Shown: piece by piece, positions 13,256 through 43,436 of the stretch
How positions within the stretch are numbered: position 1 is the first letter of the stretch
How the letters are laid out: every line of letters starts with the position of its first letter
Source of the DNA: Octopus vulgaris
Lineage: Eukaryota
Direction: 5' to 3'
Assembly: GCA_951406725.2 (NCBI GenBank)
Contig: OX597815.1
Location: 13,702,001-13,766,000 of the forward strand
DNA: 64,000 nucleotides
Position numbers and translations under genes: made by a program
Notes under the pieces: model-generated
Database searches by the model: none
What the model saw: only the letters and a program-made list of their open reading frames with translations
Told to the model about the DNA's origin: nothing

Positions 13256-13327
<72 letters not shown>

Positions 13328-13332
13328 GTAAC

Positions 13333-13497
13333 AATGAAGGGTGAAATTAATTAATTTGGAATAATTATCAATTACACCAAGTAGTCTTCGGCATGTAAAA
13401 GCCTCATTCGAGGAAAATTTAAGTAATACTAAGCAATTAAGGGTTTAGCAACGAATTGCCTTACCGCAGTAAGGCAATTCGTTGCTAAACCCTTAAT

Positions 13498-13498
<1 letters not shown>
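13333..13498 (-). mobile_element. PLE-like terminal fragment between (TA)n tracts, ending in a perfect 30-bp hairpin (13435-13498)
   Basis: Terminus homologous to 24445-24532 and 20275-20345; arms AATTAAGGGTTTAGCAACGAATTGCCTTAC and its reverse complement with a CGCA loop. Confidence 0.7.
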
Positions 13499-14111: not shown

Positions 14112-14235
14112 GATATCATTTTCAAAAAAACTGATGGGGTGACAGATATATGAAGTTAACAGAGACAAGTAGGTAACGTACGTCTTCACTAAATGAACGA
14201 GAATACCATATATAATCTGAGATACTGAATATATC

Positions 14236-14274
<39 letters not shown>

Positions 14275-14280
<6 letters not shown>

Positions 14281-14873
14281 GTTATCGCCATACTAATATG
14301 GCATTCTTATAAAAATAAGAAAAAAGCTGTCCGCTTATTAGCTCCATGAGGCCATCGCCTTAAGTTAGCTATTTGATACACAAACTGTATCCATATAACC
14401 TTCGAACAAGGGAGGTCAGTCGCTCCACACTACTTGACCGGCAGCTACAGACGCGTTTCGGGGTATTGCCCCTTTTCAATGCAGCGTAGCCAGCCAGTAG
14501 GTGTCGCTTCCGACAATCTCTGTTCGATGGTTTTATTTACCTAGTTTCGGTGGAATACATCCACTTGTTTTCAATAATAGAAATATTAAAATAACTAAGT
14601 CTCTCTAAAAGAGAACAGCGGCAGCGTTCCCGGAAAATAATAGTTATCGCCGGTCAAGTAGTGTGGAGCGACTGACCTCCCTTGTTCGAAGGTTATATGG
14701 ATACAGTTTGTGTATCAAATAGCTAACTTAAGGCGATGGCCTCATGGAGCTAATAAGCGGACAGCTTTTTTCTTATTTTTATAAGAATGCCATATTAGTA
14801 TGGCGATAACTATTATTTTCCGGGAACGCTGCCGCTGTTCTCTTTTAGAGAGACTTAGTTATTTTAATATTTC

Positions 14874-14880
<7 letters not shown>
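14275..14880. mobile_element. HHR-bearing fold-back cassette with nested inverted repeats (A-HHR-B-A'-B'), flanked by (TA)n
   Basis: 14275-14442 is the reverse complement of 14649-14816; 14574-14651 is the reverse complement of 14802-14879; long (TA)n on both sides. Confidence 0.85.
14444..14485 (-). ncRNA. Type I hammerhead ribozyme (U3-A8 core variant)
   Basis: Minus strand: GCTGCA-TTGAAAA-GGGG caata CCCC-GAAA-CGCG-TC-TGTAGC; 6-bp stem I, 4-bp stem II, palindromic stem III, GUC cleavage triplet. Confidence 0.85.
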
Positions 14881-14951
<71 letters not shown>

Positions 14952-14956
14952 ATATG

Positions 14957-15064
<108 letters not shown>

Positions 15065-41656: not shown

Positions 41657-41693
<37 letters not shown>

Positions 41694-41750
41694 AAAAAAT
41701 GAAGTTCGAAAATGCTGCTGTATTATACAATTTTTAATTTTTATATATAC

Positions 41751-41794
41751 ATTATAACATGTTTCAGTTCCTGAAATGAACCTTATCAAAAAAA
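41751..41794 (-). ncRNA. Degenerate hammerhead ribozyme (U3-A8 variant)
   Basis: TTGATAA-GGTTC atttcag GAACT-GAAA-CATG-TT; stem I weak; lies in a (TA)n-abutting fragment. Confidence 0.55.
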
Positions 41795-43436
41795 GTTATA
41801 TATAAAAAAAGACAGCTCATGCCGTCAAACACAAGAAATTCATTTATAATACACAACGGAGTCAGACATCTTAGAGTTCATGTATAGTTGATATATAGTT
41901 CATGTATAGTTGATATATAGTTTGAAGTATATGTTGAAAGTGTTCGATGCAGTGGCCCACGATGGCGATACGTATTCAATACAAAAAACAGATCAAAGTG
42001 GTGGAAAGCGGTCAATACAGAAGATTGATGTTTCCGAAAGAGCGAGGAATTCATTTTTACCTTAAGCAATTGTGATGACCCATGGTGGAAGTTCGCTGGG
42101 TGGTTCTAGTGAGTTTTTGTGAAGTGCTCGGTTTTATAATGCCTGTTAGGTGGTCAATCTAGCGTAGCGTGACATAGAGAGAGAGAGAGCGACAGAGAGA
42201 GAGACAGACAGACAGACACACACACATACAAACACACACATAGACAGAGAGGTACACAGACAGACAAACGAACAGGAAGGCAGTTAAGACGATAGGTAGA
42301 CACAGTGACACACAGCTATATCAGTCACCAACAACGCCAAACAAAGAGTCATTTTGTCACGCAGTCAGCGAAATTAAACGCCACACCCTAGCAAACGCCA
42401 TACATGAGCATGCAGTTGGAAAATAAAGATTTTGGAAGAAACTTATGGAATGCACTGTGGCATCAGATAATTTAGTCTCACCACAGTGAGAGGTTCAATG
42501 AAAGCAAAGATCCCCAATTGTCGACAGATGCATTAAGAACATGAACAGAAAGATAGGCTACCCTACGCTGACACAAGCGAAAACGTGCATAAGAATAGAA
42601 CCCGCGGGTGTATTATGACACGTGAACATAAGCAAAATATCCGCCTCCTCTCTACCATTAAGCATCAGTAGAGAAGATGCTAAGATATTATTAATATGTA
42701 GTTGTAATGATTATCTCCTACCACAATACCTGGGGAAAGATGCATTAAATTTCACAGTGTAAGATATTTTATCCTACAACAGAGTAATCCTGCGTGGGAA
42801 ATACGGAGAATTAAGAAAATCAAAATATCTAAAATTAGAATAAGGTTCAAGTTTAGCTTGAGTTGTTTCTGTAGCTTGTACAGGCAGAACTACCTATAAC
42901 AACGGCAACAGCAGTAGCAAGAGAAAGAAGAGTCAAATCTAAAACCACAACCAAATCAGCGAAAAACGTTACTTTTGAAAGAAGACGCGAAGCAGGATTC
43001 ACTCACCGCTGCTCCCACTAAAAGATGAAACACTAATAAAAATTACTTATACGCACATACGCATATGTTCATCAACATCTATCTCCGCCTTCCCACATCT
43101 CGTCAAATGACGGAGAGCTGATGAAAACAGGAGAAATTTAATTCGTCGGAGCACCGAGAGAAGAGACAGAAAATGAAGTAATCACTAAAAAACTTCAGTT
43201 CAGCCATCCCCATGCACACCGAAAAAAGGACACAGAGAGACAGACAGGCAGAGACACAGGTAGACAGACACACATACAAACAGACAGACACATAGACAGA
43301 GAGGCACAGAGATAGACAAATGAGATAGACAAAAGAAGGCAGTTAAGAAGGTGGACACAGTGACACACAAAAACAGGCAGACATTCAAATAGACAAATTA
43401 CAGACAGGTAGACAGACAGCCAGAGAAACGGTTAGG

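Follow-up and report, generated by a model that had tools for sequence, protein, structure and literature searches.

Head-to-head insertions of a hammerhead-bearing retrozyme in Octopus vulgaris suggest priming of both DNA ends on one RNA

Introduction

The window analysed here, a stretch of 64,000 nucleotides of the Octopus vulgaris genome, contains at 14275-14880 two inverted arms of a repeat that carries a predicted hammerhead ribozyme, and the locus raises the question of how these arms were copied and joined. The first-pass annotation described them as nested inverted repeats left by a self-cleaved RNA through repeated template jumps, that is, as a genomic footprint of ribozyme activity in vivo.

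Both non-LTR retrozymes and the likelihood that they depend on PLEs are already in the literature (Cervera and de la Pena 2020, PMC7229834; Li et al. 2026, 10.64898/2026.07.22.740005). The movement of animal retrozymes is described as unresolved (10.64898/2026.07.22.740005), and the formation of tandem and inverted PLE insertions has been named an open task (Craig et al. 2021, PMC8557442).

Sequences and methods

Monomer positions are numbered from the base directly after the predicted hammerhead cut (+1). From the genome 170 loci were fetched, of which 165 remained after the removal of 5 re-fetches. Set A comprises 44 loci from the first 100 matches to an internal 26-mer, set B 16 loci picked by the hammerhead core, set C 80 loci from the first 100 matches to the S1 end (Table 1) and set D 25 loci picked by a full-unit match.

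The statistics of arm stops were obtained from 204 arms of sets A and C, with expected numbers scaled by the traversal of each position; sets B and D were excluded as they had been selected for the hammerhead or the full unit. Arms with less than 93% identity, shorter than 25 nt, at a locus edge or ending outside S1 and S2 were also excluded, together with 3 duplicate arms and 1 arm abutting N. Since BLAST ends include the microhomology, the real stops are a few bases more distant from the cut.

Structure of the insertion

Two inverted repeats were found at the locus, one of 168 nt (14275-14442 with 14649-14816) and one of 78 nt (14574-14651 with 14802-14879), and both are 100% complementary, as the first-pass annotation had stated. 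There is in addition a direct repeat with a period of 362 nt (14275-14289 equals 14637-14651), so that 14275-14651 is a single unbroken minus-strand arm of 1.04 monomers, which runs across an intact hammerhead site. The only head-to-head junction is the GCC that had already been pointed out, and because these three bases are common to both arms, the first base of arm 2 is equivalent to +8 or to a position as late as +11, in agreement with the reported start 7 nt past the cut. The second inverted repeat follows from the unit being a 362-nt tandem or circular monomer, and a second jump is superfluous. One insertion with one junction and two continuous arms makes up the locus (Table 1); the separate second inverted piece, the nesting and the repeated jumps that had been proposed are not borne out. 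Both 3' ends point outward, finish in CTATTAT and continue as (TA)n.

Table 1. Features of the insertion and its flanks (positions in the window)
Feature	Position	Strand	Description or basis
Left (TA)n target microsatellite	14229..14277		sequence
Arm 1	14275..14651	-	377 nt; monomer 161 to 362, then 1 to 175; 3' end is S1
3' end site S1, CTATTAT, monomer 175, into (TA)n	14275..14281	-	small hairpin before S1
Predicted type I hammerhead	14427..14503	-	fold, covariation; predicted cut between 14450 and 14449
Sole head-to-head junction, GCC microhomology, 3 nt	14649..14651		sequence comparison
Arm 2	14649..14879	+	231 nt, continuous; monomer +8 to 238; 3' end is S2
3' end site S2, CTATTAT, monomer 238, into (TA)n	14873..14879	+	63 nt past S1
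Right (TA)n/(TATG)n target microsatellite	14877..15061		sequence

The retrozyme family in the genome

The 33-nt hammerhead core has 786 exact copies in the 2.8 Gb genome and the internal 26-mer has 2358, while exact junction motifs of S1 plus TA and of S2 plus TA number 289 and 202, respectively. Among the 40 candidates that were scored, out of 1198, at least 44 places, the window included, match 373 of 373 bases at 100%. The copies are very young and on the order of a thousand in the genome, and the window insertion is a very young copy of this 362-base mobile repeat with a predicted hammerhead, in line with the very recent insertion that the annotation had inferred. It is moreover an ordinary member of its family, in which head-to-head arms were present at 30 of 44 loci in set A, 10 of 16 in set B, 63 of 80 in set C and 21 of 25 in set D, with arms that often exceed one monomer and reach up to 2005 nt.

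The unit is AT-rich (GC below 50%), tandem, and taken to be non-coding. Its circular fold is strongly self-paired (z -6.8). The copies are dispersed, retrotransposed and carry 5'-truncated arms, and they show no LTR, PBS or PPT, the last two judged informally. Moreover, the family presents the insertion anatomy of PLEs, with an inverted truncated copy, a one-sided tail and a microsatellite target. We classify it as a non-LTR retrozyme. Among the listed runs that contain words of the unit none is coded as RNA, which is silent on expression either way.

An older subfamily, about 80-88% identical to the window unit, was seen at L091, L098, L117, L057 and L189; it keeps the S1 and S2 ends and its hammerhead changes are compensatory. 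Near-identical words of the unit (share 0.94-1.00) were also found in runs X1-X20, coded as six organisms when the labels are counted as given (A-G without H), and the family may therefore span related species, or the run labels may be loose.

Predicted hammerhead ribozyme

Each 362-nt unit is predicted to contain one type I hammerhead. At the predicted cut the minus strand reads GAAACGCGUC/UGUAGCU-GCCGG, which puts the cleavage between 14450 and 14449, where the first-pass annotation had placed it; activity of the ribozyme is likewise a prediction. The core UUGAAAA lies at 14479-14473, and in it U3-A8 replaces C3-G8 (assigned by hand). Stem II occupies 14472-14460 (GGGG/CCCC) and GAAA 14459-14456; stem III, ACGCGU, is palindromic with two pairs, and stem I is extended. 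A U3-A8 core has been described as a variant in Schistosoma PLEs, and a short palindromic helix III implies that cleavage takes place in a dimer (PMC4209133).

The region folds with a z of -3.9. In an alignment of 10 hand-chosen variants 95.8% of cells were paired and 7 of 26 pairs had changed on both sides, the palindrome centre included; as these variants are mutually related and the tested structure was derived from one of them, the covariation is support rather than proof. The Rfam hammerhead gave 0 matches at the gathering threshold and was absent from the 10 weak matches too. In a recent study, 8 of 9 predicted Xenopus elements failed to cleave (10.64898/2026.07.22.740005).

Two fixed 3' ends and head-to-head joins

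The 3' ends of the family lie at monomer 175 (S1) or 238 (S2). When all four sets were taken together, 103 pairs of arms with both ends typed combined one S1 with one S2 and only 2, both in set D, were of the same type; a further 19 pairs had one end at neither site. In the set free of selection for end type, 25 of 25 pairs were mixed (one of them a duplicate). Of 80 typed pairs, 73 were flanked by TA on each side.

The joins are rich in microhomology. The overlap was at least 2 nt in 68 of 86 joins, compared with 16% at random, with a mean of 2.7 nt against 0.7 for random joins, and filler sequence was present in 16 of 102. At 96 of 104 informative sites the two arms of a pair also had the minor allele in common (shuffled mean 14.6%, maximum 28% in 1000 shuffles), which points to one source haplotype, not strictly to one molecule. 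Inside single arms, minor alleles were common to the tandem units in 159 of 170 cases. Variants private to one locus occurred 15 times in every unit and 90 times in just some of the units, counts that do not decide between a circle and a linear multimer, and genomic evidence for a monomer bottleneck is weak.

The 5' ends of paired arms are no nearer to each other than chance would have them (7 of 102 against 7.3). S2 arms stopping 20-35 nt behind the S1 arm numbered 9 against 4.8 expected (P 0.04), or 10 against 5.9 in all sets (P 0.06); the idea of a trailing polymerase was dropped, as this signal is weak. At four loci foreign sequence of 110-790 nt separates the arms (L062:2388-2523, L063:2002-2251, L092:408-516 and L159:2008-2798), and the insert of L159 resembles, by eye, part of another retrotransposon.

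The window contains a further head-to-head two-arm copy in (TA)n, at 13327-13498 (142 and 30 nt), from another young family with 1602 search candidates. Its unit of 586 nt bears a C3-G8 hammerhead with a long stem II and is unrelated to the 362-nt unit. This second family has two classes of 3' end about 100 nt apart; 32 of 59 loci were head-to-head, with 26 pairs joining a long to a short end and one apparent same-type pair that was caused by the locus edge.

Stops around the predicted cleavage site

If arms were copied from self-cleaved RNA their 5' ends should accumulate at the cut, and the distribution of truncation points had been put forward as the way to see it. The distribution is indeed non-uniform, and it has no peak at the cut. 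Stops at -5..+5 numbered 5 against 4.8 expected and those at +1..+9 numbered 3 against 4.4 (204 arms), so that the claimed cleavage footprint is not supported. Of 203 passes that reach +20, 18 stop at +1..+20 and 181 proceed beyond -5; 112 of the 204 arms cross the predicted cut. The absence of a peak and this read-through argue that the template was mostly uncut, or re-ligated, at the site, with a cleaved share of possibly up to about 9% of passes.

Excesses of stops were found in windows picked post hoc from the histogram: at +10..+20 (15 against 5.7 expected, p 0.00065 uncorrected; 15 in S1 arms and 0 in S2 arms), at +36..+52 (32 against 10.1, S2 arms predominating) and, to a lesser extent, at 195-212 and 320-336. 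The first of these was higher on the first pass (14 of 85 against 3 of 44), and it may reflect a minority of templates that had been cleaved and then trimmed at the end. S2 arms, to which the near-cut arm of the window belongs, had 1 stop at +1..+20 against 4.1 expected, and in 5 of 92 pairs an arm starts at +1..+10. The stop rate correlated with the GC content upstream (rho 0.40; 0.8% of rotations as extreme), and pairing probability in the circular fold showed no significant correlation with stops (11% of rotations). Positions +8..+20 form the 3' strand of the extended stem I.

In the second family 37 of 43 passes read through the cut, and stops numbered 4 against 2.4 at +1..+20 and 7 against 2.3 at +36..+52. 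Both the rule of one end of each type and the missing peak at the cut recur in this family. The +36..+52 excess lies at an equal distance from the predicted cut in the two unrelated families. Stop positions differ between S1 and S2 arms in the first family.

Mechanism of insertion and alternatives

Taken at the level of the family, the evidence suggests two-site twin priming on a single RNA, either uncut or circular. We put at roughly 70% the probability that the locus is one retrozyme insertion made by a PLE-type enzyme, with both TA ends copying one uncut tandem or circular RNA from two fixed sites. A Penelope-type reverse transcriptase-endonuclease would cut a TA repeat, and each broken TA end would anneal at one CTATTAT site and prime there, one at S1 and the other at S2 of the same RNA. 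The two cDNAs would halt at variable positions, oftener at GC-rich stems, and their 3' ends would then anneal across 2-4 bases to give the head-to-head join. Priming of both DNA ends on one RNA is the simplest reading of the two arms, the fixed S1 and S2 sites and the shared alleles. The start of arm 2 at +8 would be a stall in stem I of the hammerhead, or chance, and not run-off at a cut end. That the template was a ribozyme-made circle rather than an uncut multimer has slightly better than even odds. A simple stall model leaves unexplained why the +10..+20 excess is confined to S1 arms and higher on the first pass, and the difference in stop sites between S1 and S2 arms likewise speaks against this reading.

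A more specific version, which we regard as tentative and somewhat short of an even chance, is that the twin priming is programmed: a dimer of the enzyme would hold both TA ends and start at the two fixed sites on one ribozyme-made circle, rolling past the ligated cut. If this is true, an inverted copy with a one-sided tail is the normal PLE product, and retrozyme loci are direct genomic records of reverse transcription around circular RNA.

The model of the first-pass annotation would have arm 2 copied to near the 5' end of a self-cleaved RNA, with 7-10 bases lost in joining. It accommodates the start of arm 2 at +8 to +11 and the mostly first-pass excess at +10..+20, and the +36..+52 excess of both families, at a shared distance from the cut, also speaks in its favour; it needs a dimer or longer RNA cut at the first site only, or two RNA molecules. 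We consider it unlikely, given the read-through and the lack of excess at the cut itself in both families. Moreover, the excess belongs to S1 arms whereas the near-cut arm of the window is an S2 arm, crossing of the cut by the partner is no rarer for S1 arms stopping at +1..+20 (5 of 13) than for other first-pass stops (4 of 20), and arms starting as near to the cut as arm 2 occur in some pairs anyway. The window locus is no evidence of ribozyme cleavage in vivo.

Fold-back self-priming, in which one cDNA snaps back at a microhomology and copies itself into an inverted arm, was put forward to explain Penelope copies arranged head-to-head (Arkhipova et al. 2013, PMC3846280). It would account for the shared alleles and the microhomology, and 60 of 101 pairs are compatible with it as well as with twin priming, which counts against the latter (37 pairs fit S2-first and 23 fit S1-first). 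However, 41 of the 101 pairs fit neither direction, which refutes fold-back as a general route, and in 29 pairs each arm carries at least 15 bases missing from its partner. The genome's retrozyme copies thus already disfavour it, and for the window, whose arms of 377 and 231 nt fit neither direction without an extra jump, it is very improbable. We give hardly any credence to two separate insertions in one TA tract, to later recombination or to an assembly artefact. TA tracts do gather several young elements, three of them within 28 kb of this window, and no short-read contig bridges the window junction among 32 of 540 records listed, but there is no TA between the arms, the S1 plus S2 rule is strict and alleles are shared. 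Contigs of public runs, in addition, show joints of left arm to right arm elsewhere, and one such joint recurs in 3 of 4 runs; taken to be the junctions of other copies, these indicate that the architecture is not peculiar to the assembly. As the genome offers young copies together with allele markers, a pair of fixed start sites and a candidate enzyme whose ORFs are intact, the question of insertion becomes directly testable.

Relation to known elements

In LINE-1 twin priming both ends of the target prime on one RNA, and head-to-head arms with a microhomology join result; the second site is an opportunistic one there, and most insertions are not inverted. In the octopus retrozyme the second site is instead fixed, most insertions have two arms, and the arms overlap when placed on the unit.

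The metazoan non-LTR retrozymes described so far resemble the octopus unit in being non-coding tandem units of 150-450 bp (350-390 bp in mussel) with one type I hammerhead each and a strongly self-paired circle, and in co-occurring with hammerhead-bearing PLEs (PMC7229834; 10.64898/2026.07.22.740005). The octopus unit differs in its U3-A8 core within a hammerhead of canonical size, and in its dispersed, mostly head-to-head two-arm (TA)n insertions with two fixed 3' ends; the word "inverted" is absent from the main text of PMC7229834. The EN-bearing PLEs Neptune, Poseidon and Naiad likewise form 5'-truncated partial tandems with a bias for (TA)n, and an inverted 5'-truncated head-to-head copy with the "tail" often on one end only; their tail is 30-40 nt against 63 nt here, and the octopus unit is taken to have no ORF (PMC8557442; PMC3846280). 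Since in octopus, unlike those PLEs, the whole unit repeats, alleles and read-through can be scored.

For a Poseidon PLE of Anolis, in vitro work reported two adjacent internal start sites of reverse transcription, cutting and extension of both DNA strands, a predicted dimer, no need of hammerhead cleavage and an absence of RNA-seq reads that end at the cut (Frangieh et al. 2024, PMC11167929). The anole start site is not homologous to the target and does not differ between the two strands (PMC11167929), whereas in octopus each DNA end has a different site, and both S1 and S2 end in the target-like CTATTAT. The lack of homology in the anole counts against the twin-priming reading, and its two start sites with extension of both strands count for it. 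For the rule of one site per end, for the shared-allele evidence or for a two-arm retrozyme architecture we found no published account in a search that had most subscription journals and supplements outside its reach.

Candidate enzyme

A search of the genome for GIY-YIG gave 148 matches. Among the elements there is a young family with an ORF of 781 aa comprising RT, a Cys-rich linker and GIY-YIG at the C terminus; RVT_1 scored just below its cut-off (E 1.2e-6, 28.9 bits against 29.6) and GIY-YIG above. We call it Neptune-like from this combination of domains rather than from a tree. Its 3' end bears a minimal U3-A8 hammerhead and passes into (TA)n at either of two sites, which lie about 30 nt from each other; the longer end follows a hairpin and CTATTAT. 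One end of each type was used in all 12 head-to-head copies examined (6 chosen as opposite-strand neighbours, 2 for the ORF and 4 among 14 loci by the long end alone), and among 100 short ends listed none was seen by eye to face another short end.

The Neptune-like element is a candidate for the enzyme of the retrozyme. The two have the U3-A8 core and the CTATTAT end in common, and their 3' resemblance is weak (P 0.05). In 40 GIY-YIG loci of the 148 matches, blastn with the retrozyme gave no match attributable to a PLE terminus, and as the Neptune-like element has no significant similarity beyond the weak 3' resemblance, a different family may be the real partner. At one locus a PLE ORF lies upstream of a retrozyme arm; a fusion was considered there and set aside, since the sequence in between reads N.

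At L193, L197, L199 and L203 the PLE RT ORF has another ORF, of up to 479 aa, upstream of it and overlapping it; this second ORF matched no Pfam family at the cut-off. The window itself carries, on the minus strand at 41683-42173, a 491-nt 3' fragment of the Neptune-like PLE that is 98.8% identical, includes the minimal U3-A8 hammerhead and terminates at the short site, in (TA)n.
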